64,000 bases of DNA from Centroscyllium fabricii (lineage: Eukaryota): the NCBI GenBank assembly GCA_051313645.2, contig JBNRSN020000019.1:48360001-48424000 (forward strand), read 5' to 3'. The notes under the pieces were generated by a model. That model had not been told where the DNA came from, did not search any database, and saw only the letters and a program-made list of their open reading frames with translations. Made by a program: the position numbers and the translations under genes. Shown here piece after piece: positions 3,990 to 62,397 of this stretch. Positions within the stretch are counted from its first letter, which is position 1. Each line of letters begins with the position of its first letter.

Positions 3990-4462
3990 TCATAAATCGG
4001 TAAATCCTTGATGTGAGCATCATCATGCAACACATTGAGAGCCACTGAAATAGAGATTCCAAACTGAACAAAACTTCCGCATATAATCAATTGATTTCAT
4101 AACTGTGATTTTCTCTCATGGTCTGGTGATGATTATTAACACATTGAACAATACTGTCATTCTTTATGGTGTCATCCAAACCCCTCAATCAGATTACTAT
4201 TGGACAAACTTTGTGAATCATTCCATTTGATTGCAGCCTGTACCTCACTCTGAGAGATCCATTATTCTATACATAGACCATCCAAACACTTTTTAGATTA
4301 ATGCCTTGTAATCATTCCCATATTCTTAAATTGCTTAACAGTGTTCACATCTTAGTTTGTTGATATTTGAAATGCAATTAAGGTAGATTCTCAGATGCAT
4401 CTGCAATTTTGATAATGGTTCAGAAAACAAAGCTTTATCTAGCATTGAACAAAAGTTTTATG
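3990..4462 (-). pseudogene. Very decayed non-LTR RT remnant, possibly continuing at 8864-8960 across LTR element 1
   Basis: Minus-strand fragments read VLFNVLII, LNVLHDDA, a KAF-like piece and (beyond the element) CISLTGIHIK, in RT motif order. Heavily frameshifted. Confidence 0.3.
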
Positions 4463-4467
4463 ATGAT

Positions 4468-4729
4468 TGATGCATGAGCAATTACAGCTAATCGACAGAA
4501 TTAGGTAATCAAGGCTTTTATTAACAAAAGAACTGAAGTACAGGTCTCAACACTATCTGGTCCTGGAATGTCAGGGGTCAACAGGGCTGCCACCTTTATA
4601 CCACAGCCTGTGGGTGGAGCCTGGGGGCGGAGCCAGCAGAGACATCCCAGGTAGATACAGTGGGACAAGAGGTAACTATATACAGCACAGTATAACAGTG
4701 GTGGTAAACAGTATTACAGGTTTACCACA
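4468..4729 (-). repeat. 3' LTR of element 1 (262 bp)
   Basis: Matches 8620-8863. Minus strand contains TATAAAGG and AATAAA. Confidence 0.93.
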
Positions 4730-4742
4730 TTCACACCTCGTT

Positions 4743-7700
4743 TTAAAATTGAGTCCGGCGGGGTGAAGTGGTTCTGCCGGGAGCGGCATAAGAAAGTCTA
4801 TCGGGCGGTCTGGTCTCCCTCCGTGACCGGCGCAGCTCCGGCTGTTGTGCGGGATCCTCAGGCAAGATGGTCTTCATCATCGGTGGCGTGACAACAGTCT
4901 CCTGGTGGGCGTGCATCGAAGGATCCCGGGACGCCGGCGTACCGTCTAGCGGGGCTAGAGAAAGGGAGGGCAACACAGGTGCATCGAGACTAACAGTGGG
5001 GGAGGTGGGATAGGTGGTGGGAAATGGTGGTCTCTGGGGCACCCGAGGGTGCAAGGTCTCGAATGGAGATCGTGTCCTCCCGCCCGTCGGGGAATGCCAC
5101 GTAGGCGTATTGGGGGTTGGCGTGGAGGAGCAATACCCTGTCGACCAGTGGGTCTGTCTTATGGCTCCTCACGTGCCTCCGAAGTAGGACGGCCCCTGGT
5201 GACGTCAGCCACAATGGTAGCGAGGTCCCTGCGGTGGAGTTCCTAGGGAAGGCAAACATCTCGTGAGGAGTAGCATTAGTTGCAGTACAAAGCAGCGACC
5301 TAATGAAGTGGAGCGCATCAGGGAGGACCTCCTGCCAGCGGGAGATTGGGAGGCCCCTAGGGCTAGTAGAACAGCCTTCCAGACTGTCCCGTTCTCCCTC
5401 TCAACCTGCCCATTCCCCCGGGGGTTGTAGCTGGTGGTCCTGTTCGTTGCAACTCCTTTCGTGAGCAGGTACTGGCGCAGCTCATCACTCATGAACGAGG
5501 AGCCCCGATCACTATGTATGTAGTTGGGGAAGCCGAACATGGTGAAGATGCTGTGCAGGCACTTGATGACCGTGGCCGAGGTCATGTCTGGGCAAGGGAT
5601 GGCGAAGGGGAAACGCGAGTACTCATCAATGATGGTGAGAAAGTACACGTTGCGGTCGGCGGAGGGGAGGGGCCCTTTGAAGTCGACACTCAGGCGCTCA
5701 AAGGGGCAGGTGGCCTTTATCAGGTTAGCTTTGTCTGGCCTGTAGAAGTGCGGTTTGCACTCGGTGCAGACTTGGCAGTTCCTGGTAACGGTCCGGACAT
5801 CCCCAATGGAGTAAGGCAGGTTGTGGGACTTGACAAAGTGGAACAACCTGGTGACTCTCGGGTGACAGAAGTCATTGTGGAGAGATTGTAGTCTATCCAC
5901 TTGTGCGTTGGCACAAGTTCCACGGGATAGAGCATCCGGGGGCTCATTGAGTTTACAAGATGTCGTAATTGTAGGTGGACAGTTCGATCCTCCACCTCAG
6001 GATCTTGTCATTTTTAATCTTGCCCCGCTGTTTATTATTAAACATAAAAGCCACTGAACGCTGGTCAGTGAGCAGGGTGAATCTTCTACTGGCCAGGTAA
6101 TGCCTCCAGTGCTGCACCGCTTCCACGATGGCCTGGGCTTCTTTTACCACAGAGGAATGTCTGATTTCAGGGCCTTGGAGGGTACGGGAAAAGAAGGCCA
6201 CCCGTCTCCCCGCCTGATTAAGGGTAGCGGCCAGAGCGAAGTCAGAGGCATCGCTTTCCACCTGGAACAGGGTGGATTCATCCACGGCGTGCATGGTCGC
6301 CTTCACAATGTCTGACTTAATTCTATCGAAGGCTACACGAGCCTCATCCACCGGGGGGAAAGAGGTAGATTTGATGAGGGGGCGAGCTTCGTCTGCATAA
6401 TTAGGGACCCACTGGGCATAATACGAGAAAAAGCCCAGGCATCTTTTCAGGGCCTTGAGACTGTGGGGGAGGGGAAGTTCCATGAGGGGGCGCATGCGTT
6501 CGGGGTCTGGATCGATGACCCCATTTTCCACGACACATCCCAGGGTAGCGAGGCGGGTTGTGCGGAAAACGCATTTCTCCTTGTTGTATGTGAGGTTGAA
6601 GAGCTGGGCCGTTTGGAGAAATTTAGCCAAATTGGCGTCGTGGTCCTGCAGGTCATAGCCGCAGATGGTGACATTGTCTAAGTAGGGAAAAGCAGCCAGC
6701 AGCTCATTTTGGTCCACCATTCGGTCCATCTCCCGCTGAAAGACTGATACCCCGTTGGTGACGCCGAACGGGACCCTGAGGAAATGGTAAAGACGGTCGT
6801 CTGCTTCAAAGGCAGTGTACTGGCGGTCGTCGGGGTGAATGGGGAGCTGGTGATACGCAGACTTTAAGTCGATCGTGGAGAATACCCAGTACTGCGCAAT
6901 CTGGTTGACCATGTCAGATATGCGAGGAAGGGGGCATGCGTCCAGCTGCGTAAACCGGTTTATGGTTTGGCTGTAGTCGGTGACCAGGTGGTGTTTCTCG
7001 CCGGTCATAACGACTACAACTTGGGCTCTCCAGGGGCTGTTACTAGCCTCAATGATCCCCTCCCTCAGGAGCCGCTGAACCTCAGATTTAATGAAAAATC
7101 TATCCCCCGCACTGTAGCGCCTGCTTTTAGTAGCTATGGGCTTGCAGTCCAGGGTGAGATTAGCGAACAGTGAGGGAGGGGCGACCTTAAGAGTCGAGAG
7201 GCTGCAAATGGTGCATGGCTGGTAATTTAAAAACTGCTGGCTGCAAACAGTGAGGGGGGGGGGGAGGGGCCCACCGTACTTCATCGTGTCGCTGTCGAGG
7301 TAGCTCATGAAGTCTAGCCCGAGCAGAACGTCAGCGCAGAGGTAGGGAAGGACAAAGAGTTTAAAATTACTATAAACCATGCACCGCACTGACAATGTAA
7401 CAACGCAGTAGCCGCCGACATCCGCTGTTTGAGACTTAGAGGCCAGGGAGATCCGCTGGTGCACCGGAAGGACCGAGAGTGAAAGCCTCCGTACTGTGTC
7501 GGGGTGAATAAAGCTTTCAGTGCTCTGAGTCAAAAAGGCAGTTCGTGTTGCGTCCGTTTACCTGGATGTCCATTGTGGACCTGGCGAGCTGGTGAGGCCT
7601 GGACTGATCCAGGGTAATGGAGGCCAGTTGAGGCAGTAAAAAATCGGGGTCCTCTGGTGTGGAAGCGGGGGAGGCGGGCGTGGACGCGGTCGGCGAATTC

Positions 7701-8597
7701 CACGCATCTGGGGGAGATCCAATATGGCCGCCCCCTCGATCCCCATGTGGCCTGACAAGATGGCCGCCCCTAGATCCCCATGTGGCCGTCCAAGATGGCC
7801 ACTCGACCAGACCACACGCTGCGCTGCTGGGGCTAGGGGAGGGTTTTGCCTTGCAAACGCTGGCGTAGTGCCCCTTTTTGCAGCTAGAGCACGTTGCATC
7901 TTTCGCCGGGTAGCGCTGCCTGGGGTGCTTAGGATGGCCACAGAAATAGCACTACTGGGCACGGGACACCGCTGTAGACATTAGCGGAGGCGGCGCGGCG
8001 CCGGGGGGCGATCCTACCGTCCAAGATGGCTGCGCCAGCGCCGTCCATGAGGCAGCCGCCTGGTCCAATGAGTAGGACTCCTTATTCCTGTGTGCCATGT
8101 CCAGCGAGGGCTGAGGCTTTTTTTTAAATCGAGGTCACTGTGCTCGAGCAGCCGCTGACAGGTGTAGCTCGATTTGATACCCGCAACAAAGGCATCGCGT
8201 ATCAGGCCCTCCACGCACTCCTGGGCTGTTACCGGCTTGCAGCTGCAGGCTCGTGCGAGTACTCGCAGCACCCGAAGGTAGTCCGCTGTAGACTCACCGG
8301 TCTGTTGTCTGCGGCACAGCAGGAGGTGTCTAGCGTAGACCTCGTTAATCGGGGTAGCGAACTGATCTTTAAGGAGCCTAGGGCGTCCTCGTAAGAGGTC
8401 TTGTCTTCGATCAGCATGTAGGTATGATGGCTTACCCGGGATTGCAGGACCATCAGCTTCTGTTCGACCGAGGTGACGGTGGCACTGGAGGCTGCTAAAA
8501 AGAGTTCAAAGCACTTCAGCCAGTGCGCAAACCTTTGCGGTGCGTCCACCGCCTGCGGGTCTAACTCCAGGCGATTGGGTCTTAATATTTTATCCAT
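4743..8597 (-). pseudogene. gag-pol of element 1, broken by several frameshifts and stops
   Basis: ORF pieces 8229-8600 and 8014-8271 (gag); CYFCGHPKH and CSSCK-KGHYASVC knuckles near 7850-7955; 5953-7533 (PR/RT/RNase H: SPW, DLKSAYHQ, VPFG, YLDN, ESDASD, KEAQAI, TDQRS); 5205-5900 (IN: HHCC, VDFKGP, HSDRG, GQVER). Confidence 0.93.
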
Positions 8598-8619
8598 CAC
8601 TAAAACAATTTTTGTTAAT

Positions 8620-8863
8620 AGCTAATCGACAGAATTAGGTAATCAAGACTTTTATTAACAAAAGAACTGAAGTACAGGTCTCAACACTATCTGGTCCTGG
8701 AATGTCAGGGGTCAGCAGGGGTGCCACCTTTATACCATAGCCTGTGGGTGCAGCCTGGGGGCAGAGCCAGCAGAGACATCCCAGGTAGATACAGTGGGAC
8801 AAGAGGTAACTATATACAGCACAGTATAACAGTGGTGGTAAACAGTATTACAGGTTTACCACA
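8620..8863 (-). repeat. 5' LTR of element 1, lacking ~19 bp at its inner (U5) end
   Basis: Aligns to 4487-4729. The TGATGCATGAGCAATTAC start seen in the other LTR is missing. Confidence 0.9.
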
Positions 8864-9059
8864 ATGTTCTTAATGATCGAACATCCAAATGGTATCTCGC
8901 ATCAAAGATGTGATATGTATTAATATTTTAATGTGAATGCCTGTTAAGCTAATGCATCATACTTCAGCTATTCAGATGTTGTAGAGATGGTTCATAACTA
9001 AACAGGAATCATCTCTACTGAAAGAAAAACAGCTTGACTATGTTGTTCTTACAGAGTGC

Positions 9060-9125
9060 CAGAATATAAAGAAATTATAGGTCAGGTAGTCTTACTTCAC
9101 ATTTTGGTAAACTATCAAAATCCAT
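9060..9125 (+). pseudogene. Old CR1 RT remnant split by element 2 (continues at 13772-13925, probable 3' end at 14895-15055)
   Basis: Joined across the TSD it reads NYR..SLTSHFGKLSKSILWEEIMKHLEKHELIKAIQQG...EFFEEV...AFDKVS, typical of CR1 RT. Confidence 0.75.
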
Positions 9126-9386
9126 TGTAACCTTCAATAACGTCCACGGAGTCATGTAGTAGATTAGAACAATCAGGCTTTTATTGACTACAGTAAGAAT
9201 GCACACCAGCAAGCTGACTGTCCCCTAGAATGACATGGGAGATGGGGGCAGTCACTTATATACTCCCTCCAGCGGGGGAGGAGTCGTGGGCGGAGCCAGG
9301 TATGTTCCAGGTATCACAGTGGAATGCATTACAGGTATGGGTTACATAGTGATTAACTATATACAGTGATATACACGTTTATCACA
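9126..9386 (-). repeat. 3' LTR of element 2
   Basis: Direct repeat of 13511-13771. Confidence 0.96.
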
Positions 9387-9503
9387 TTCACCCCTTCTTT
9401 AAGAACGAAAATACAGCAGGGTGAAGGACTAACAATTACAAAGGTGATCAGAAAAAATATATATATATACAAACGCAGTTCTTATGATTACAAGTTTAAT
9501 CTA

Positions 9504-12500
9504 TCAGGCGCTCCCCCAGCCGAGTCTTTCAGGTGGTTTGGTTGTCCGCGTCGATCTTCGCACCACTGGTGGTGCCTGTGGTGTTCGTGGTCGTGGAGCG
9601 GCTGGTTGTGTCTGTTGCTCCATTGATGCCGGTCGACTAGTGGTGGTTGTTATGTTACTTCTGGGTGGCGGTGGTGCCCTTATTCTGACAGCAGGGGGCG
9701 CCTTCTCTCCTTCGTCCTCTGACTCTAGGGGGCGCGCGCTGTGGATCCAAGCTTGGGGCCAGGTCGTGCTGCTTGCAGGTGCCTTGTGAGCATACTGGGG
9801 TACTGGGACCACGTGTGGGGGAGCGTACTTCGGCTTCGGCGGCATGGGGCGCGTCACAGGACATTTTGGGTGCGTGACCTGCTGGGCGGGGCTTCTTGGG
9901 GGCTCGGGCTGCCTGGCGGGGCTGGGCTTTGGGACTCCTGCTGGGGCTAGGTCCTTTATGGACACGGTGTCCTCCCTCCCATCTGGGAACGCTATGTAAG
10001 CGTACTGGGGATTTGCGTGCAGGAGGTGGACCCGTTCGACTAGGGGATCTGCCTTGTGTCCCCTCACATGCTTCCGAAGCAGGACCGGTCCCGGAGATAG
10101 TAGCCACGATGGTAGCGAGGTCCCAGAAGCCGACTTCCTGGGGAAGGCAAAAAGTCGTTCGTGAGGGGTGGCATTGGTGGCAGTACAGAGGAGGGACCGA
10201 ATAGAGTGGAGGGCTTCGGGGAGGACGTCCTGCCATCGGGTGACTGGGAGGTCTTTAGACCGTAGGGCTAACTGGATGGCTTTCCAGACAGTGGCGTTCT
10301 CTCTCTCTACCTGCCCGTTCCCCCGGGGGTTGTAGCTGGTAGTCCTGCTAGTCGCGATGCCTTTCGCTAGCAGGAACTGGCGCAGCTCGTCGCTCATAAA
10401 AGAGGTCCCCCGGTCACTATGGATATAGTTGGGGTACCTGAACAGGGAGAAAATGCTATTGAGAGCCTTGGTGACGGTGGCGGAGGTCATGTCCTGGCAG
10501 GGAATAGCGAAGGGGAAGCGGGAGTACTCATCTATCACGTTAAGGAAGTACACATTCCTATTAGATGAGGGAAGGGGCCCTTTAAAATCGACACTGAGTC
10601 GTTCAAAGGGGCGAGTGGCCTTGATCAAGTGCGCCCGGTCTGGCCGGTAGAAGTGCGGCTTGCACTCCGCGCAGACCTGGCAGTTGCTGGTCATGGTCTT
10701 GACCTCCTCGATGGAGTAGGGGAGGTTGCGGGACTTCACAAAGTGAACCAACCTGGTGACCCCCGGGTGGCAGAGGTCATTGTGGAGAGTTTGGAGACGG
10801 TCAGCCTGTGCGCTGGCACAGGTACCGCGGGATAGGGCATCTGGGGGTTCGTTAAATATCCCGGGCCGGTACAAGATATCATAATTGAACGCAGATAGTT
10901 CAATTCTCCACCTTAATATCTTGTCGTTCTTTATTTTACCCCGTTCTTTGTTATTAAACATGAATGCGACTGATCGTTGGTCAGTCAACAGGGTAAAACG
11001 TTTGCCGGCCAGGTAGTGCTTCCAGTGCCGCACTGCTTCAACGATGGCCTGGGCCTCCTTCTCGACTGAGGAATGGCGGGTTTCGGGGCCTTGGAGGGTA
11101 CGTGAAAAGAAGGCCACGGGTCTGCCCGCCTGGTTAAGGGTGGCGGCCAAGGCAAAGTCCGATGCATCGCTTTCCACTTGGAATGGGACGGACTCATCTA
11201 CCGCGTGCATCGTGGCTTTGGCAATGTCGTTTTTAATTCTGCAGAATGCCGAGTTGGCTTCTGCAGAAAGGGGGAAAGAGGTCGATTTAAGTAGTGGGCG
11301 AGCTTTGTCCGCATAATTGGGGACCCACTGGGCGTAATAAGCAAAAAATCCCAAACACCGTTTAAGAGCTGTGGGGGAGGGGAAGCTCCATGAGGAGGCG
11401 CATGCGGTCCGGGCCTGGACCGATGACTCCATTCTCCACCACGCTGCCGAGGATGGCCAGGCGGGTGGTGCTAAACATACATTTCTCCTTGTTATATGTT
11501 AGGTTCAGGGTTTTGGCCGTGTGGAGAAATTTTTCGAGATTGGCGTTATGGTCCTGCTGATCATGGCCGCAGATGGTCACATTATCAAGGTACAGGAAGG
11601 TCGCTCGCAGCCCGTACCGATCAACCATTCGGTCCATCTCCCTCTGGAAGACCGAGACCCCGTTTGTGACGCCAAACGGCACCCTAAGGAAGTGGTAGAG
11701 GCGACCGTCAGCCTCAAAGGCTGTATAAAGACGGTCCTCTGGGCGGATGGGAAGCTGGTGATAAGCCGATTTTAAATCTATTGTGGAGTACACTTTAAAT
11801 TGGGCAATTTGGTTCACCATGTCCGCTATCCGGGGGAGGGGGTAGGCATCTAGTTGGGTGAACCGGTTTATGGTCTGGCTGTAATCCACTACCATCCTAT
11901 TCTTCTCTCCGGTTTTTACTACCACTACCTGTGCTCTCCAGGGGCTATTACTGGCCTCTATGACCCCCTCTTTTAGGAGGCGCTGCACCTCAGATTTTAT
12001 AAATACCATGTCCCCAGCACTGTAGCGCCTACTTTTGGTGGCGACGGGCTTACAGTCTGGGGTGAGGTTGGCAAAGAGAGATGGAGGGGCAACCTTAAGG
12101 GTTGAGAGGCCACAGTTAGTGTACTGGGGGTACCGCCTTGAGCCGCGGTTTCTGACCATGAGTGAGGGAAGGGGTCCGCCAAATGCCATAGTAACGCTCT
12201 GAAGGTGGCACTGGAAGTCCAGTCCCAGGAGTAGCGGGGCGCAGAGCTGCGGCAGCACGTAAAAACTAAAGTCATTAAACATTGCGCCCTGTACTTTAAG
12301 CGTTACAATACAGCGCCCGGTGACGTCAGCGGATTCTGACTTGGACGCCATAGATATTCTCTGGCGCGCAGGGATTACTTTAAGGGAGAGGCGCTTTACG
12401 GTATTTTGGTGAACAAAACTTACTGTGCTCCCACTGTCGAACAGGCACACCACCTCTTCACCGTTAACTTCCACCGGCATCATCGATTTCTCCAGTGGTT

Positions 12501-13491
12501 GAATCTTCCTCTGGTCTAGGCTCGTCGATGCTAGCACAGGGTCCTCCGAGTTATCTTGATCTGGAGAATAGTCCTCCAAGTCTGCTCCCCAAAATGGCTG
12601 CTGCCGTGTGTTGGGCTGTGGAGGCTGAGTCAAAGATGGCCGCTGTTGCTGCGGCTGCCACGAGGGCTGCTGAGTGGGGGATGGGTGAGTCCAATGTGGC
12701 TGCTCCCCTGTTCCACACGCAGCGCTGCCCAGTTTAGATTTAACGTTAGTGTTTTTACAGACCTTTGAATAATGTCCCTTCTTGTCGCATTTTGAGCAGG
12801 TCGCTTCTCTAGCAGGGCAGCTGCGTCTTGCGTGTTGAGGTTGCCCACAAAAGTAGCATCTAGCTTTAGCGTGGGCAGCTGTGAGTAGTTCTTCTGCCGG
12901 TCATTGCGCCAGCGCTGTCCAAGCTTGCGGGGCTGGGCCCGTATAATTACTTGAATATGACGATAAGTCTGTTGATGCGCTATCCAGCGCGTGTCCCAAG
13001 TCTGTGGTCGCCTGTAAGTCCTGGCCGTTCTGCTCCAGCAGTCTCTGTCTGGCATAGTCCGATTTTAGACCAGTTACATAGGCGTCTCTGATGAGGCTCT
13101 CCATATGAACTTGAGCCGTTTGCGCTCTGCAGTCACAGTCCCGTGCCAGCACTCTGAGGGCTCTTAGGAACTGCACACTCGATTCGTTATTTTGCTGCTT
13201 TCTAGTAGCGAGTATGTGTCTCGCGTGGACTATGTTCGGTGCCCGCTTATATTCCGCCTCGAGGAGCCTGATGGCCTCTTGGAACGATGGGGCATCCACT
13301 GTCATTGAGTACACTTGAGGGCCCACCTGGGCGTTGAAGAGTCGCCGTTTTTGCTCCTCGGTTACTATGACCGCCGCGTTGGCTCTGATGTACCCTTCGA
13401 GCACGTTTCGCCAGTGTGAGAAGGCGTTTGCTGCTCCTGAAGATCGGGGGTCAACTTCGAACACTGCTGGTTTAAGCATTGAGGTATCCAT
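9504..13491 (-). pseudogene. gag-pol polyprotein of element 2 (one in-frame stop at 12901-12903, one frameshift near 11370)
   Basis: Gag starts at ATG 13491. Reading through the TGA gives CYFCGQPQHARRSC and CSKCDKKGHYSKVC zinc knuckles (12757-12858), in frame with protease LFDSGS and RT (YLDN at 11581-11592). RNase H and integrase (HHCC, DDE) lie in 9504-11432. Confidence 0.95.
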
Positions 13492-13510
13492 TTCTAGTAG
13501 TCAATAAAAT

Positions 13511-13771
13511 TGTAACCTTCAATAACGTCCACGGAGTCGTGTAGTAGATTAGAACAATCAGGCTTTTATTGACTACAGTAAGAATGCACACCAGCAAGCT
13601 GACTGTCCCCTAGAATGACATGGGGGATGGGGGCAGTCACTTATATACTCCCTCCAGCGGGGGAGGAGTCGTGGGCGAAGCCAGGTATGTTCCAGGTATC
13701 ACGGTGGAATGCATTACAGGTATGGGTTACATGGTGATTAACTATATACAGTGATATACACGTTTATCACA
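13511..13771 (-). repeat. 5' LTR of element 2 with TATA (13640-13647), Inr-like TCATTC (A at 13616) and AATAAA (13565-13570)
   Basis: Minus strand reads TATATAAG, then TCATTC with the A 31 nt from the first T, then GTAGTCAATAAAA. Confidence 0.9.
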
Positions 13772-14054
13772 TCCATATTATGGGAGGAAATTATGAAGCA
13801 CTTGGAGAAACATGAGTTAATCAAAGCCATTCAGCAAGGATTACTAAAACATTATAGAATTCTTTGAAGAAGTAATAGATGATGGAATTGCATTTTTATA
13901 CAGCATTTGACAAGGTATCTCAATACCATTGTAACATTAGGAACAGGAGTAGACCACTCAGCCCCTTTTGGGCCTGCAACAATATTCAATTAGATCATGG
14001 CTGATCTAGAAACATAGGAATTCAGAAATTGACCACAATAGACTGGGTGGAACT

Positions 14055-18169: not shown

Positions 18170-19655
18170 GTGTGTGTACTCCTTACAGTGAGATTGCTAA
18201 AATACAGGTTGTAGCAGCACGAGTTGTATGTGCCACATAGAATATGTAAACTATGATATGAAATGTGTCTCTTACAGTATATAGACTATAATCTAAAATT
18301 TATGGCCCTTTGATTTTATATTTATGTACTCTATATCCCTTAAAGTATATAGATTTGTGTCCCTTATAGTACGTAGATTATAGAATGTCCCTTATAGTAC
18401 GTAGATTATAGAATGTCCCTTGCAGAAGATGGATTATTAACTATGTCCCAGATGGTATATGGTTATAATGTGAAATATGTTCATCCTTAGTGTATGGATT
18501 AAGATATAAAATGTCTATATTCTTTACAATATATAGATTATAATGTCAAATGTGAGTGTTCCTTACAGTATATAAATTATGATTATATTCTAGAAATATT
18601 TCCTGTGCAGAATATAGATTATAATATAAAATGTGTCCCTCACGGTAGATAAATTAGAATTTTAATATTAAATGTGTTCTTGGCAGTATATAAAATGTAT
18701 CCCTTCCAGAAGAAAGATGACTAAATAGACTATTTCCCATTCAGTACATGGATTACAATGTGTGCATTATTTACACTATATACATTACAGTGTGTGCATT
18801 CCTTACACTGTATACATTATAGTATAAAATGTCTGTGTTCTTTGCAGTATATAGAGTATAATGTGAATGTTCATTACAGTATATAAATTATGATTACATG
18901 AAATACCTGTTTCTTACCATATACTGTAAATATTGTATTTGTAATATAAAAATGTCCCTTGTGATATATGGATTATAATATAAAATGGTTGTGTCACTTA
19001 CTTTCTATTATAATCTATATACTGTATGTTCTTTACAGAACATATTTTATAATTGTAACATAAAATGTGCTCCTGACAGTATATAGGCTATACTAAAAAT
19101 GTGTCCCTTACAGAACATAGATTGTAATAAAAATTGTGGCCCTTGCAGGAGATAAATTATCCTATAAAATGTGTATCCCTTACAGAGTATAGATTATAAA
19201 ATAAAATGAGTCTTGTGCAGAGCATAGATTATAATGTAAAATGTGCTGCTTACAGTATATAGATTATAAACTAAATTGAGTGCTGCTTGTAGAAAATAGA
19301 TTATATAAAAATGTGTCTTATGCAGTACAGTATATAGATTATAATATGAAATGCATGTCCCTTACAATATCTGGATTGTAATTATAATATAAAATATATC
19401 CCATGTAGATAATATGAAATGTGTTCTTTATAGAGCATAAATTATAATTATAATATAAGTTGTAATCCTTACAGTATATAGATTGAAATACAGAATATTT
19501 CTTCCTTGCAGTACATAGATTATAATATAGAATGTGTCCCTTACAGTATATAGATTGTTATAATAGAGAACATCTGTGTCCCTTACAGTGTATTCATTAT
19601 TATAATATAAACTGTATGTGTTCCTTACAGTATATAGATTATAATATAAAATATG
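18170..19655. repeat. Degenerate AT-rich minisatellite, unit ~35-42 bp (CCTTACAGTATATAGATTATAATATAAAATGTGTGT-like)
   Basis: Recurrent CTTACAGTATATAGATTATAA core. Exact 28-bp doublet at 18361-18416. Confidence 0.85.
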
Positions 19656-39844: not shown

Positions 39845-39975
39845 AATGACTTCATTATATATGAGACACAAGTCCTTAATAGGTGCTTAAAACAAATAAA
39901 TGCATCGATTTATGGCTGGTATCTATCAGAGTACTGAGGAAAAACTAGAAAGGAGATCTGTGAGGCACGGACATT

Positions 39976-41479
39976 CAGGACCTCTCTCGCGTCAGGGGAT
40001 GTGCCTGAGGACTGGAGAACGGCTAATGTAGTACCCTTGTTTAAAAAGGGTAGTAGGGACAAACCGGGCAACTACAGGCCAATCAGTCTTACATCTGTAG
40101 TGGGGAAAGTAATGGAAAAAATTCTGAGGGATAAAATCAGTTCGCATTTGGACAACCAAGGTCTAATAAGAGACAGTCAGCATGGCTTCGTCAAAGGTAA
40201 GTCGTGCCTGACCAATCTGTTGGAATTCTTCGAGGAAGTAACAAAGAGGGTGGATGAAGGGAGTACTGTGGACGTAGTATATATGGACTTTAGCAAAGCT
40301 TTTGATAAAGTCCCACATAGGAGACTAATAACAAAGGTTAGAGCGCACGGGATACAGGGTAACTTGGCACAGTGGATCGAAAACTGGCTGGGGGATAGGA
40401 GACAAAGGGTAATGGTAGAGGGCTGCTTCTGTGACTGGAAACCAGTAACCAGTGGCGTCCCCCAAGGATCGGTTTTGGGACCCTTACTGTTTCTAGTATA
40501 CATCAACGATTTGGATATGGGAGTAGGGGGTACAATCAGCAAATTCGCTGATGATACGAAAATCGGAAGGGTGGTAAACAACGATGAGGATAGTAAGGGG
40601 CTTCAGGAGGATATAGATATAATGGTTAATTGGGCAGAAAAATGGCAAATGGAGTTCAACCCAGAGAAATGCGAGGTCATTCAATTCGGTAGACCAAATG
40701 GGGTAAGGGAATATACCATGAACAACAAAACGTTAAATAGGACCGAGGAGCAGAGGGACCTGGGGGTACAGGTGCACAGCTCCCTGAAGGTTGCTGGACA
40801 CGTTAACAAGGTGGTTAAGAAGGCATACGGAATCCTCGCCTTTATTAACCAGGGCATAGTATACAAAAGTAGGGAGGTAATGTTAAACCTGTATAACACA
40901 CTGGTGAGACCTCAGCTGGAGTACTGTGTACAGTTCTGGTCACCGCACTACAGGAAGGATGTGGCTGCCCTGGAGAGGGTGCAGAGAAGGTTTACCAGGA
41001 TGATACCTGGTCTGGCGGACCTATGCTACGAGGAAAGGCTGGACAGGCTGGGGTTGTTTGCCTTGGAGAAAAGAAGGTGGAGGGGTGACATGATTGAGGT
41101 GTACAAGATCATGAGGGGACACGATAGGGTAGACAAAGGGGCATTGTTTCCCCTGGTGGGAGAGTCAAGCACTAGGGGACATAGATTCAAGATCAGGGGG
41201 GGGAGGTTTAGGGGGGAGGTAAGGAGAAATTTCTTTACCCAGAGGGTGGTGGAAGACTGGAACTCCCTGCCTGTGAGGGTGGTGGAGGCAGGAACCATCA
41301 CAACATTTAAAAAATACTTGGACCAGCACATGAAGGACCATAACATACAGGGTTATGGGCCAGGTGCGGGCAACTGGGGTTAGTACAGGGAGGAGTTTTC
41401 CTGGGCCGGTGCGGACTGGATGGGCCGAATGGCCCTTATCCGCACTGTAAAATTTCTATGATTCTATGATTCTATGATT
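39976..41479 (+). mobile_element. Young 5'-truncated CR1 LINE
   Basis: Uninterrupted RT ORF, 3'UTR stem-loop (GTGCGGA..GGGCCGAATGGCCC..TCCGCAC) and (ATTCTATG)n tail at 41453-41479. Confidence 0.97.
40001..41383 (+). CDS. CR1 ORF2 reverse-transcriptase domain and C-terminus (5'-truncated, no endonuclease)
   Basis: 460 aa with NYRPISLTS, QHGF, DFSKAFDKV, GVPQGSVLGP, KFADD, RDLGV and LEYCVQFWSP. No stops. Confidence 0.93.
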   Translation: MPEDWRTANVVPLFKKGSRDKPGNYRPISLTSVVGKVMEKILRDKISSHLDNQGLIRDSQHGFVKGKSCLTNLLEFFEEVTKRVDEGSTVDVVYMDFSKAFDKVPHRRLITKVRAHGIQGNLAQWIENWLGDRRQRVMVEGCFCDWKPVTSGVPQGSVLGPLLFLVYINDLDMGVGGTISKFADDTKIGRVVNNDEDSKGLQEDIDIMVNWAEKWQMEFNPEKCEVIQFGRPNGVREYTMNNKTLNRTEEQRDLGVQVHSSLKVAGHVNKVVKKAYGILAFINQGIVYKSREVMLNLYNTLVRPQLEYCVQFWSPHYRKDVAALERVQRRFTRMIPGLADLCYEERLDRLGLFALEKRRWRGDMIEVYKIMRGHDRVDKGALFPLVGESSTRGHRFKIRGGRFRGEVRRNFFTQRVVEDWNSLPVRVVEAGTITTFKKYLDQHMKDHNIQGYGPGAGNWG

Positions 41480-50328: not shown

Positions 50329-51135
50329 AAAGTTTACCGGCCACACGGATCCTTAGAAGATCTCAGCGAGGAACTCGTGTGAGAAGAGCGTGCTTCACCA
50401 AAGAGGCTGAAGGACAGCTATACCAGCTTCTGCTTAAAGATCTGCAGCCAAGATCATCTGCACACAGGTCTGCCTGTGGCTGCATAAGATACGCCCACAC
50501 AATTTCTGTACCACTGGCTAATTATAAACAGCCACAGGGGTCCTGTGTAATATCACTCGGGTCCTGTGTAATATCACTCGGGGTCCTGTTTAATATCACT
50601 CGGGGTCCTGTGTAATATCACTCGGGGTCCTGTGTAATATCACTCGGGTCCTGTGTAATATCACTCGGGTCCTGTGTAATATCACTCGGGTCCTGTGTAA
50701 TATCACTCGGGTCCTGTGTAATATCACTCGGGTCCTGTGTAATATCACTCGGGGTCCTGTTTAATATCACTCGGGGTCCTGTGTAATATCACTCGGGGTC
50801 CTGTGTAATATCACTCGGGTCCTGTGTAATATCACTCGGGTCCTGTGTAATATCACTCGGGGTCCTGTGTAATATCACTCGGGGTCCTGTGTAATATCAC
50901 TCGGGGTCCTGTTTAATATCACTCGGGGTCCTGTGTAATATCACTCGGGTCCTGTGTAATATCACTCGGGGTCCTGTGTAATATCACTCGGGGTCCTGTG
51001 TAATATCACTCGGGGTCCTGTGTAATATCACTCGGGGTCCTGTGTAATATCACTCGGGGTCCTGTGTAATATCACTCGGGGTCCTGTGTAATATCACTCC
51101 GGATGCTGTCTCCCTTTGTCACTATTGTCATTACC
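50329..51135 (+). pseudogene. Harbinger (HARBI1-like) transposase N-terminal fossil, interrupted by a minisatellite
   Basis: Reads KVYRPHGSLEDLSEE / RRACFTKEAEGQLYQLLLKDLQPRS / LPVA / NFCTTG*L*TATGVLCNIT[array]PDAVSLC. This matches the Harbinger pattern RFTKE..L...LQP...LPV..K....LNFYATGSFQ..GD.CGISQSAV..C. Confidence 0.7.
50537..51099. repeat. Homogeneous minisatellite, ~26 units of (G)GGGTCCTGTGTAATATCACTC (21/22 bp)
   Basis: Head-to-tail units differing only by GGG/GGGG and three TGTTT variants. No spacers. Confidence 0.97.
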
Positions 51136-51714
51136 CCACTTCCTCTGCTTCAAAGCAGTTCTAACTCTTTCGATGTATTACACATCCCTGGACTTTTTAT
51201 TTATTGCGATACAGGGATGCCATGGCGATTATCTAGATGTTTACTCAATAACATGCTACCTGCACTGTCCCACCAATCTCATCATCTCCTATGGCGAGAG
51301 CAAAGTGCCTCCCTAGCAGCTCCAAGGCCTACTTCTCATAGGAGGTTAGCTCTCTAATGTCCAGTAGTCCCCTTTCGGTCCTCTGCCTTCCTCGGGCATT
51401 GCAAGCAAGTTTCTCCCATAATAATATTGAGGGAATTAGGTGAAGGCCAGCATTTGAGGACTGTCTCCCAGGTGGTATCACACAGAAGCTGGAATAGATT
51501 TGTTAGTATCACCCTGTCAAAATGAAAGACGGCGTTTTAAGATTCTGAATGAAACTAATTCCTGTTAGCGGAGTTGGTGATGCATATTGTACGATACAGG
51601 GTTAGATACCCTGAACCACAGAGCATAGAGAAGGGTGACTTGTGCAACTATTAATTTTAGAGAGTGAACAGTGCCCATGCTATCCAGGAAGGGAAAGGGA
51701 TGGTGGCCGGTGTG

Positions 51715-54452: not shown

Positions 54453-55009
54453 CTCCAGGTGTGGTCTCACCAAAGCCCTGTACAATTGCAGCAAGACTTC
54501 CTTCCTCTTATGCTCCAGCCCCCTTGCAGTAAAGGCCAAAATTTGCCTTCCTAATTACTTGCTGTACCTGCCTGTTAACTTTCTGTGTTTCGTGTACAAG
54601 GACACCCAAATCCCTTTGAACACCAGCATTTAATAGTTTCTCACCATTTAAAAAATATCATGTTTTTCCTACCAAAGTGAATAACCTCACATTTCACCAC
54701 ATTCTACTCCATCTGCCACCTTATTGCCCACTCACTTAACCTGTCTATATCCCTTTGCAGGCTCTTTCTGTCCGCCTCAGAGCTTACGTTCCCACCCAGC
54801 TTTGTATTGTCCGCAAACGTGGATACATTATACTTGGTCCCTTCATCTAGGCCACTCATATAGATTGTAAATAGTTGAGGCCCAAGCACTGATCCTCGCA
54901 GTCCCCCACTAGTTATAGCCTGCCAACCTAAAAATGACCGGTTTATTCCTACTCTCTGTTTTCTGTCCTTCAACCAATCCTCTATCCATGCTAATATATT
55001 CCCCCCAAT

Positions 55010-55190
55010 CAGTGTTCCATGTAAGCTGTGTTCCATGTGGTCACGCAGCAATCTGTGAAGGTACTGCACAGGCCGTTCACGAGCTGTCCCATTGAAGATA
55101 TTGCACATGCACGGCCGCTGCAAATTTAAAGTTACCGTGTATTTAAATAAACAGGCTGCGCACCCACGGTAATACTTAGAGGGAGCATTG
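55010..55190. mobile_element. hAT-type MITE inside the CR1
   Basis: TIRs CAGTGTTCCATGTAAG / CTTAGAGGGAGCATTG. 8-bp TSD CCCCCAAT/CCCCCAAC. Confidence 0.8.
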
Positions 55191-56489
55191 CCCCCAACCC
55201 CATGACCCCTTATCTGATGTAACAAATTAGTATGTGAGTACTGCATTCTGAACTGTCCTGATCTGCAAATTGTAATGCATGCCTGTGCTTGTTTTCTGCC
55301 CTACCTGTAATGGCTCTGTAGTGCTTGTTTACTCAACATCACTAAAATCATCCTGGGTGATGATTAAGACCCCTTCAGGGAGAGAGTTATTTGGACAACA
55401 GCAATCACCCAACAAGGTTATTCATCAGACAGGTAGGATTGAACCTCTGTAGAATGAAGGCATGATGAAGAGTCCAGTGCGGTCTGCCATTTCGCACACA
55501 CACCGTTCCCACTTTCCTTTCTTCATCCTTTGCTATGCATTTCTAAATTAGAGCAATTTTGAGAATTATTCGAGTGTTCAGTTATGCCAGTATCCAGTGA
55601 CATGAAAAAGCATTGCCATTATAATACTTATTTAGAAGTGTTCACACTACCAATAGCAGCTTATGTGGAGAGTGGGTGTCAATAGTTCCGTGAAGAACTG
55701 CTAGAACAATGTAGAACAATGATGTAGACAACTGAAAGTATGTAAGTCACTTGATGACCCAGCTCTGGAAGTGGTGTCAGCATCTGATGAAATCTTGTAC
55801 AATTTAGCATAGCCTTTTCATGAAAGTTTGTACTTAATATTAGCTCTTCATTTGGTGTACGAGTATTTGAAGGACTACTTTTGTAAATTGAAGCCCCTCC
55901 CTCATCCAGTGTTGTACAATTCTCCTCCTCCAGACAGAGGTTCCTTGCTGTGGAGGGTCCACCCGCAATGCCATTGTTTCTATGGCTACATATTTGGTGG
56001 TCTCTTTAGTGATATACACAAGGTAAAGCCAACAGGTATTTATGAATTTGGCAGACTTTTTAACTTGAAAGAACTTAGCTGTAACACCAATGACTCTTTC
56101 TGTACATACATGTACCCTTTCATACTTGAAACATAAGTATTGTTAACATGACCTTCTAAATGTATATGGGTCTTGACTCAGACACAGATTGGAGCCCATG
56201 AAAAGACTGCGTTGATCTAGCCAAGTATCTTTTCTCTGTCTTTTGTTAAGGTTTGGAGATGCATGATTATTTGTTGGTTGATCCTACTGACTCTCGTGGT
56301 TTAGCTATGCAACCTGATGGCTGTATTGAGCCAGCATATGGACGTGGTGTTCACTGCCAACTCTTTAGTTATTTGTACCAATCAGTTGACTGGAACCTGT
56401 TCCATCAGACCCGAGATTGATTACATCCTAGTCTAAGAGAATGGATCCTGCCAGGGTGGGGAGGGGATGAATTCTCTGAATCCTAGAAG

Positions 56490-58777: not shown

Positions 58778-60530
58778 GGGCTGGATTTTACCAACCTCGG
58801 CGGGTGCCGACCCCGCAGCTGTCTAGATCCTGGGCTCCAACATGATTTTACGTTAATAGGACTTGTTAAGCCCATCCTGCGAGTTTCCCGGCCAATTAAA
58901 AGGAAGCAGGTCTGATGACGTCATTTGATGATGCGTCATCAGCTGGTTTCCTCAAAGGGGCCATGTCCACATTCATTTTGACAGTTGTGCTGTCAGTGTT
59001 CTACAGCATTGGGGTGCTGCAAACACTGACAATCACTGCACAAAGGTGCAGGGATGCACCTAGACTCTCCCATGACTCCCTCCATATAGTTATGGAGGGA
59101 GTCACAGCATGCAGGGAGGTTCTCTTCCCTTCCCATGGGCGGAAGAGACCTCCCAAGGAGACCAACGCAGCCTGGTTGCACATTGCACAGGAGGACACAA
59201 GCAGGGATGTCGTCAGGAGGACCAGGCTGCAGTGGTGCAAACCTTTCAGTGATCTCAGTAGATCACAAAACAGTACTGCCAAGCCACATTCCACCTCATC
59301 CTGCTGTGCCACTCATCACATCCCCATCACTCTGCCTTCCCTACCCTACCCTACTCCTGCACATCTTTACTCACACCAGCTTACCTTGCACCTCCATCCA
59401 CCCCTCTCTATCTACATTATAACGTCCCCATCTCACATGTCACCCCTCACACTCACCCTCATCTTTTTCCAATCATACCAACTAACAACACACAAGGGTA
59501 GCCACTTGGGTGTTTTATGCAATGTTCATGTGAAGTCTCTGTTAATGTGTTATCAAACATTGAAATCTTTATTTACATCACTTTGCCTTCTTGGACAGAT
59601 CTGTGCTCACCTTTGGAAATGTCTGTGAGTTCCAGTGAATGGTGAGACATAACACCCCCCCCCCAAAGGTGATGAGTGTAAAAGGAATGCCTTGGACATT
59701 GTGGGGATGCTTTATGGTGTTGGTGTGGGGTGGTGCCAAACTGGCGCAATATGTGGCAGCCATGGTGTACAGGGTCAAGTGAAGTAAATTTGGCCATGGT
59801 GAGGCAATCCCTGGCCACCCGGGCAGCAATGCGCTCAGGTGCTGATGCCCTGTGTCCTGTGCAGCATTAAATGATTGCGGAGAAGGTCGGTGTTGTTGTT
59901 GGTGCTGCTGGTGTGCCTAGTGATGATGGTGTTGGGGCTGATAGTGGTGCAATTCTGAGGACCAAGGTGAGATTTGTTCAAGGGCACCAATGTTGCTGGA
60001 ATAGATGGCAGCTGAAGTTGAGATGACAGAAGCGATTTGTCAATGGTGAGAGAGCTTACTCCAAGGAAGTGACACTGGATAGAGAATTTACTCCAAACAC
60101 TTCCAAACTGAATACAGCTCAAAAGTGTCTTCCAAGTCCTGAAGGCTCAAGCTTCTGACATTGGAAAGTGAACAGCTGTGAAATGGTAGCTTTTATACCA
60201 CCTTTGTAGCTGTCACCTATTCACAGCAATGGAGAGTCATAGAGAACCTGACACACTTACCTGACGTGATCCCAGAGCAACTAGAACGTCATGAAAAAAG
60301 CTGGAAAAATGACTAGTAGGTAGTAAAATGCTGTTCAACTACCTTTAAAGACCCTCTTAACTATTTCAGTTGGTTTACCCACTGCTGGCAAAGCACAGGC
60401 AGGCCTGGCACATGGCAAACTTACACGGAGGCGGGTTCAGAACGGGATCCCAACCTGCTGTGAATCTTTTAGATTTTCACAGCGGACCTGCCTCTGAACC
60501 CGCCCTCTGAGTGCCGGCAAAATTCCGGCA
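58778..60530 (+). mobile_element. Harbinger-type element with a Myb/SANT-like ORF remnant
   Basis: Imperfect TIRs GGGCTGGATTTTACC / GGCAAAATTCCGGC, with TCA next to both ends. ORF 58915-59628 contains APRLSHDSLHIVMEGVTACREVLFPSHGRKRPPKETNAAWLHIAQE...RRTRLQWCKPFSDL. Confidence 0.75.
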
Positions 60531-61434: not shown

Positions 61435-62397
61435 AACCAAACACATTCTTCTTTTTTCCCTTTATCGAGACTAATGAAACAGCCGAGAAGGATAGCAGAG
61501 GGCTGAGAGAACACAAAGGGACAAGAAGAGACAATGGGCGTGAAATTTGTCAGCGCACGATTTCTGGCGCTAAAATTAGCGCTGTGGTGCCCGATATTGA
61601 CTTTAGCGCTAATTCAGGTGTTGCACGACTTCCAGGTGACCAATTTTTTGGTGCTAATTGCCGATACCGGGCGCAGCGCACTTTAACCAAGTGCTTGCTT
61701 CCCCATGACCTCTGGAGCCGAATAGGTCTTAAAGGGGTAGGGGAAACAGAGCATCATGTTTTGGTCCCCCCTCCCTCATCAACTGGCCGATCTCGGGCCG
61801 CCCGACCCCCCCTCCCGCATCATCTCCCCGATCTCGGGCCGCCCGACCCGCCTCCCGCATCATCTCCCCGATCTCGGGCCACCCGACCCCCCTCCCCGCT
61901 CCCTTAGCAACTGCTCGATCTGGGGCCGCCCGATCCCCCTCCCTGCTCCCTTAGCAACTGGCCGATCTCGGGCCGAGGAGGGAGGTTCGCCCTTTTAGCA
62001 GCGCTGCAGCGGCCACTCAAAGCCGCAGCAGCACTTGCCAAAGCTGGCACTGGCAGCGCGGGGCGGGGTGGACAGGCGCAAAAGCTCATTTCGGGCACAG
62101 CCCGGCGGGCGGGCGTTGCACACGCATTTGAACGAGGATTGCTGATCGCTAATTAACGAGCGCTAACATTTAGCGCCGGCACTGGGCGGGTGGCGAATTG
62201 AGCGCCCGGTGCTATTTTTGGTGCTAATTCGGCGCTGGCCCATTAGCACCCATTTTCGGCGCTAATGGGCCAGTGCCAATTTCGCGCCCATAGTGTCTTC
62301 TTTCCTTGATAAAGGGAACTTCCCGAAACGTTGACTCTGTGTTTCTCTCCACAGATGCTGCCTGAACTGCTGAGTTTTTCCAGCATTTTCTGTTTTT
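61435..62397. mobile_element. Penelope-like terminal fragment with a 17-bp target duplication
   Basis: TTGAGGCTGAACTAGTG is duplicated at 61418-61434 and 62398-62414. 62290-62397 matches the PLE terminal region seen at 16240-16318. Confidence 0.7.
61536..62289. mobile_element. GC/CpG-rich Harbinger-type MITE with internal tandem repeats
   Basis: TIRs GGGCGTGAAATT / AATTTCGCGCCC, repeated GCGCTAA motifs, and ~40-bp GATCTCGGGCCGCCCGACCC repeats at 61785-61975. Confidence 0.75.

Follow-up and report, generated by a model that had tools for sequence, protein, structure and literature searches.

The locus described here raises the question of how a retrotransposon starts reverse transcription when its primer-binding site (PBS) matches its own LTR. 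It lies within a 64,000-nt stretch of contig JBNRSN020000019.1 (positions 48,360,001 to 48,424,000), hereafter the window, in the 7.2 Gb genome of the animal Centroscyllium fabricii, and consists of a tandem pair of LTR retrotransposons, both on the minus strand, which we call element 1 and element 2. In the literature covered by our search, self-priming has been shown for the fission-yeast element Tf1 and is elsewhere predicted from complementarity, with the primer at the extreme 5' terminus of the RNA. The comparisons reported below suggest that the group of element 1 likely uses a variant of Tf1-type self-priming with a long capped primer.

Element 1 (4468-8863, minus strand) is a decayed Ty3/Gypsy copy with a deleted U5 end. 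Its U5-truncated 5' LTR (8621..8863) shows 6 differences over 243 nt from the complete 262-nt 3' LTR (4468..4729), and the flanking target duplication (AACAT at 8864-8868, ATCAT at 4463-4467) matches at four of five positions. The gag-pol region (5205..8597, minus), frameshifted and interrupted by stops, begins with the gag ATG at 8597-8595 and encodes protease, reverse transcriptase (RT), RNase H, and integrase; a polypurine tract (4730..4739, minus) with AA at its end precedes the TG of the 3' LTR. Element 2 (9126-13771, minus strand) has a 261-nt 5' LTR (13511..13771) and a 3' LTR (9126..9386) with 5 differences over 261 nt, a polypurine tract adjoining the 3' LTR (9387-9400), a gag-pol region spread over three frames by a stop and a frameshift (9504..13491), and an exact 5-bp target duplication, ATGGA (13772-13776 and 9121-9125). 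Direct LTRs with TG...CA ends, a polypurine tract, and a 5-bp target duplication (exact in element 2, four of five positions in element 1) are thus common to the pair, as is the Pfam order protease, RT, RNase H, integrase, which identifies Ty3/Gypsy. The Pfam search detected no chromodomain and no envelope family in either element. The integrase tail of element 2 is proline-rich. Two CCHC-type zinc knuckles are visible in Gag, and a Gag with two zinc knuckles, together with an RT that groups with Mag, Jule, and SURL, is the criterion for the Mag lineage.

Several further features of the window were recorded. The RT catalytic motif is YLDN in both elements (5956-7557 and 11365-12900, minus); among 124 collected proteins, the first match to this motif ended in N in 90 and in D in 31, and was absent from 3. 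The two elements lie ~250 bp apart (8869-9120) in the same orientation with separate target duplications, and two families are also found within 3 kb of each other at L020, L125, L134, L140, L150, and L163. Rfam returned no matches across 4300-13900. Elsewhere in the window there are degenerate minisatellite arrays at 18250-19650 (units of ~35-42 nt), 50530-51150 (21-22 nt), and 61770-62000 (40-47 nt), and the open frames outside both elements include 39938-41383 (plus strand, 481 codons), 58900-59628 (plus, 242 codons), and 54704-55300 (minus, 198 codons).

The original prediction held that in both elements the PBS position and a tract of the same element's LTR are reverse complements, and that this tract occupies the same place relative to the promoter. 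In element 1, the PBS remnant at 8610-8620, TTTTGTTAATA, and the LTR tract at 8653-8663, TATTAACAAAA (both read on the plus strand), are indeed exact reverse complements; among 50,000 dinucleotide shuffles of the 262-nt LTR, 5 produced a complement of the 11-mer. The whole tract, a predicted primer 3' end, comprises 14 nt (8650..8663, minus) complementary to the intact PBS, of which the remnant (8610..8620, minus) retains 11 of 14 nt; it contains AATAAA on the minus strand (8651-8656), an overlap that had also been claimed. The TATA box of element 1, TATAAA, lies at 8729..8734 (minus), and the predicted transcription start (+1), an Inr-like A 31 nt below it, at 8703. Between this +1 and the tract is a 40-nt leader (8664..8703, minus), which fossils of related families, described below, suggest would be the unpaired 5' part of the primer. 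Element 2 has its TATA at 13641-13647 (minus), its predicted +1 at 13616, a 13-nt LTR tract at +41 to +53 (13564..13576, minus), and an intact PBS (13497..13509, minus) separated from the LTR CA by a single spacer A (13510). The equal geometry was therefore recovered: the TATA-to-Inr distance is 31 nt in both elements (8734 to 8703 and 13647 to 13616), the tract begins at +41 in both, and the LTRs are unlike, with 56% identity in a global alignment. The pair does not represent two independent lineages, since both families belong to one Gag subclade.

Alignment with the intact copy L003 places the deletion point of element 1 at 8620..8621 (minus). The loss amounts to 23 nt, within the ~20-25 bp that had been proposed, and takes in 18 nt of U5 together with the spacer A and four T, with one T shared. 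The 5' RNA of element 2 folds into the tract/PBS helix (z -2.17), and the deleted form of element 1 folds no better than shuffles (z 0.37). In the predicted transcript of element 2 (13489-13616, minus), the first bases also pair with the bases right after the PBS, and the same spot is a recurrent fossil junction (L373, L396, L400).

For undeleted copies of family 1, the family of element 1, the expectation was that the LTR end would be followed almost directly by the complement of the tract. Of 29 other LTR loci of this family, six proved to be 5' LTRs, each of them with the reading CA + A + TTTTATT... A genome search with a junction pattern that left 15 PBS positions free (copies with indels there being unmatchable; control matches 0) yielded 99 undeleted family-1 junctions, of which 70 read CA + A + TTTTATTAACAAAA exactly and 29 carried 1-3 substitutions. 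A TGG tRNA PBS, the finding named in advance as contrary, occurred in 0 of the 99, and no other tRNA-type PBS was found among them. In 37 of 39 copies of the family, 85 nt separate the TATA box from the junction below it. Among 50 family-1 rows, PBS variants were uncompensated in the tract, barring one partial case (L173); such variants look like decay after insertion, and rewriting of the PBS is not seen directly in this family.

We then compared junctions over a wider set of relatives. Their Gag starts came from this genome, by way of three protein searches (30 loci taken from each 150-locus list), from 80 metagenome loci, and from the family-1 loci. The sample amounted to 167 distinct copies in 30 clusters, the family-1 copies being selected by LTR or PBS-flank sequence and the remainder by protein. 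Each Gag search of this genome gave ~350,000 first-look candidates; viral contigs contributed a single distant locus. A helix of at least 11 of 12 pairs was present in 140 of the 167 copies and 28 of the 30 families, and in 0 of 300 shuffles. The register is common to these 28 families, from this genome and from metagenome contigs alike: the helix starts at LTR end +2 and comprises 13-14 Watson-Crick pairs, and the tract ends AAA|GCC, with GCC or ACC following the tract in nearly all copies. Its edges are sharp, as seen in 136 copies at positions outside the span used for selection, where 1 copy is paired at position 0, 126 at 13, 108 at 14, and 27 at 15. Across the same 136 copies, the PBS begins with TTT (134, 133, and 134 at paired positions 1-3), not TGG.

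One of the 30 clusters had no usable junction, and family comparisons therefore use 29. Pairing at helix positions 4-13 was perfect with the family's own PBS in 21 of 29 families and in 6 of 812 cross-family combinations, so the covariation of both arms noted for the pair is real and extends far past two families; this difference between self and cross pairing rules out a fixed host RNA as primer. Closely related subfamilies exchange both arms jointly. The best copy of each family gave 366 Watson-Crick pairs, 3 G-U pairs, and 8 mismatches, and other predicted helices 546 Watson-Crick and 88 G-U (634 pairs), a comparison that favours the claim because the best-pairing copy per family was chosen and the comparator helices are predicted ones. 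Position 10 stands out in the otherwise variable, A-U-rich helix, being a G-C pair in 28 of 29 families. The AG frequent at positions 11-10 was also considered as a splice acceptor; this was ruled out, as the pairing runs past the AG. Judged by sequence covariation, pairing with the own LTR is a feature of the clade as a whole, with family-specific compensatory changes. The proposal that selection acts on the pairing is thereby supported, but the covariation may be partly mechanical, through rewriting of the PBS.

The proposal of a constrained geometry held for part of the clade. A TATA box 80-86 nt above the junction was found in 11 of 13 families of this genome, the exceptions being one family with 107-110 nt and one with 65 nt or none, and in 0 of 14 metagenome families. 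Ten of those 11 families form one Gag subclade (support 100/99) that contains elements 1 and 2. Within it, the TATA distance stays at 80-86 nt, whereas U3 (86-172 nt) and the U5 loop (49-61 nt) vary more, and most pairs of leaders are near random identity. We conclude that the geometry is constrained in this subclade, where the TATA distance is tight, and not in the whole clade, where other spacings occur. Among the families without TATA, no initiator motif proved to be conserved, either where the tract begins or at some constant distance.

If these elements prime with their own RNA, the primer may leave a trace. In Tf1, about half of the cDNAs are described as retaining a DNA copy of the self-primer (PMC11042837). 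Since the Tf1 self-primer is copied into plus-strand DNA, insertions in which the PBS continues into antisense leader would be expected here. We searched the genome with patterns of the form 'LTR end + PBS + antisense leader', having set the +1 prediction (TATA minus 31) before these searches, and fetched all matches (controls 0): 68 in three families and 43 in the family of element 2 and its sister. They comprise 102 distinct junctions. The inverted copy is shorter than 20 nt in 6; it ends between 20 nt and 7 nt before the predicted +1 in 21, at -6 to +3 of the predicted +1 in 31, and in the next ~108 nt in 8 (31 versus 8, binomial p 2e-26), and reaches beyond 165 nt in 36. Only 3 junctions fall in the 10 nt after the +1 window (versus 31, p 4e-7). 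The pile-up moves with the TATA box of each family (54-55, 53, 52, and 51-52 nt); fossil junctions end at the transcription start of the original prediction in five related families. Several fossil end points show 0-1 nt of microhomology, and many junctions join to positions in gag or pol. Among 38 loci checked, both ends were visible in 8, of which 7 have an exact 5-bp target duplication and 1 matches at four of five positions. We consider the fossils best read as plus-strand copies of the primer in these five families, including that of element 2.

A further search anchored at +1 gave 10 matches, 5 of them ordinary LTR variants and 5 true junctions (2 already known). All five true junctions are preceded by U5 + A + PBS and none by inverted U5. 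This arrangement is more in keeping with one mis-joining of a copied primer than with a jump to ordinary strong-stop DNA. Separately, inverted U5 of 8-40 nt, nearly always ending in A, lies between the tract and GCC in 45 LTRs of four families (a count that excludes one further row, a false match). Cleavage at the G of GCC, or one base ahead of it, would fit these insertions; short homologies could also account for them, as many return at 1-5 nt of homology.

Other rearranged copies were observed as well. At L268, L283, L304, and L316 there are palindromic double LTRs: behind an LTR and the PBS comes a further, inverted LTR that extends as far as its TG start, and target duplications of 5 bp border the whole. 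At L258, L266, L274, L293, L306, L375, and ten further loci, the 3' LTR passes at the tract into inverted U5, and a second LTR in inverted orientation follows wherever this part is visible at the locus.

The fossil search in family 1 itself gave 1 match, which belongs to another family; few are expected, as there are only ~100 intact copies. Two families outside the subclade, f5 (L320-L357) and f25 (L413-L445), behaved differently from the five: in f5, 1 of 38 junctions stopped inside the leader (at 41 nt), and in f25 none of 33 did. Most of their junctions (63 of 71) run through U3 and reach the LTR start or the polypurine tract, and a third outside family gave 2 matches, both long. With almost no ends in the leader, the junctions of f5 and f25 do not support a 5' fragment as primer in those families.

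Taken together, the helix register and the fossil ends make it probable that elements of the subclade prime with the capped first 51-55 nt of their own RNA rather than with a tRNA; we extend the same model to families beyond the subclade with less confidence. In the proposed sequence of events, transcription would start ~31 nt below the TATA box, where the fossil ends of five families agree. The tract at +41 to +54 would then pair with the site starting 2 nt after the LTR, as the covariation suggests, and a cut of the RNA at or one base before AAA|GCC would free the 3' end. The cutting enzyme is assumed, by analogy to Tf1, to be the element's own RNase H. RT would extend the primer into U5, and junctions of such a form occur in the genome. 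Plus-strand synthesis might sometimes copy the entire primer up to the cap, with mis-joining of the resulting tail leaving the fossils, and copying of the primer could overwrite the PBS with LTR-derived sequence, so that the two arms would stay matched. The polymerase-to-RNase H distance of Ty3 RT is given as ~13 bp (PMC5371799), and the 13-14 pairs of the helix may reflect a distance of this kind.

The strongest competing explanation, which we still regard as unlikely, takes the primer from the tract copy that lies in the 3' R region, with the RNA cut near its 3' end and circularising onto the PBS. It would accommodate the 36 of 102 subclade junctions and the 63 of 71 outside-family matches that pass +1 toward the LTR start or the polypurine tract. 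Such a primer has, however, no natural end at +1, where the junctions pile up, and the strong-stop DNA it gives would carry inverted U5 and then terminate at +1, a form seen in none of the five +1-anchored junctions. Long inversions would also follow from re-priming of the copied tail on R; they fit this re-priming, a 3' R-copy primer, or switching at the DNA level. In the families without fossils at +1, a 3' R primer may be in use.

It is less likely still that concealing the 5' LTR's poly(A) signal is the sole function of the helix, with something else as primer. All 13 junction-bearing families of this genome have AATAAA or ATTAAA within the tract, and the placement of the PBS behind the 5' LTR alone would suit this role. 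Neither hexamer is in the tract of 9 of the 29 families, however, 2 of which have it in the downstream loop, so poly(A) masking cannot be the general role. In addition, the arm begins exactly where minus-strand synthesis must, there is no other PBS, and masking leaves the fossils unexplained. As a second role beside priming, masking of the 5' poly(A) signal is plausible in the families of this genome.

A strictly Tf1-like arrangement, with the transcription start at the tract itself and a primer of just 13-14 nt, appears slightly less probable again. The sharp outer edge of the helix at 13-15 pairs would suit it, and so would the metagenome families, which have no TATA at 80-86 nt. The tract start nevertheless bears no conserved initiator motif, and 52 of 102 junctions extend at least 20 nt, ending at or before the +1 predicted from TATA. 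The least credible reading is that host DNA polymerase switched templates at the quasi-palindrome after insertion, with no role for RNA: template switching can create inverted copies and can use one arm to 'correct' its partner, which would suit the partial compensation in L173, confined to its 5' LTR, but nothing would make a DNA process halt at +1, the fossil elements have two LTRs and target duplications, with many joining distant gag or pol, and inverted U5 occurs in solo LTRs, which have no PBS.

Priming by the capped 5' fragment of the element's own RNA would mean that a very abundant animal clade appears to use another self-priming geometry than Tf1, and that traces of the primer's two ends are preserved in the genome. 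A search for junctions of the form 'LTR end + PBS + antisense leader' can point to the start site and the primer length without RNA data, and is applicable to any predicted self-primer. The model would also explain why annotation tools for tRNA sites find no PBS in these elements. A broader scenario, which we offer only tentatively, is an animal-wide Gypsy clade in which self-priming evolved apart from Tf1/sushi, with a capped, length-constrained primer of ~54 nt whose 14-nt tract would combine the primer 3' end, hiding of the 5' LTR's poly(A) signal, fold-back of the primer on the new minus strand for removal, and rewriting of the PBS in each cycle; in sister families the tract's 3' copy may serve instead. 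Our literature search, with subscription journals, Repbase Reports, and much older work outside its scope, found no account of self-priming in this clade.

The identity of the clade can be approached through described elements. Cigr-1, with its founder in Ciona intestinalis, has LTRs of ~245 bp, one ORF of ~1,200 codons, and a Mag/SURL-like Gag. The relatives of our elements fit these traits by description, not by sequence, and we take it that their clade may be Cigr-1. Their named protein relatives come from a ray (the closest), nematodes, crustaceans, and an anemone. The Cigr-1 clade is reported from molluscs and annelids (PMC6238403, PMC8556966), and term searches of the main texts of these two papers gave no mention of a PBS. 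The clade name Saci2 was ruled out, as Saci2 is described with a 4-bp duplication (PMC12471100). By eye only, the RT motifs differ from the Mag rows of a published alignment (PMC2871265 supplement).

Among elements with unconventional PBS regions, the dictyostelid Skipper is described as having a T-rich stretch in place of a TGG-type PBS beside its left LTR, and unconventional priming has been proposed for it; unlike the elements studied here, it is reported with a chromodomain and with no complementary region found in its LTRs (PMC5006619). For Tf1/sushi, plant Tcn1, and copia TAR elements, self-priming has been predicted from LTR complementarity of at least 10 bp located 0-5 bp after the 5' LTR, and the predictions as presented there include no long leader and no mapping of primer ends from fossils (PMC6317226). 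Our elements appear to belong to a different lineage by their domain content, with no chromodomain detected in elements 1 and 2 as opposed to the Tf1/sushi chromoviruses, and by their RT motifs in a by-eye comparison with the published alignment (PMC2871265 supplement). The closest functional parallels are Tf1 and Tf2 of Schizosaccharomyces pombe and Tj1 of S. japonicus, which, as described, likewise have a PBS complementary to their own 5' LTR transcript and use no tRNA, need a cut to obtain a free 3' end, and have a primer that can be copied into plus-strand DNA (PMC7175516, PMC4600332, PMC11042837). Fossils read as primer copying of the Tf1 type were seen here in five families of the subclade, and not in family 1 or the two outside families. 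In Tf1, the primer consists of the RNA's first 11 bases, freed by RNase H (PMC7175516, PMC4600332, PMC5341516), and thus lies at the RNA 5' end, whereas in the elements studied here the tract begins at +41 and the fossil copies reach 51-55 nt.
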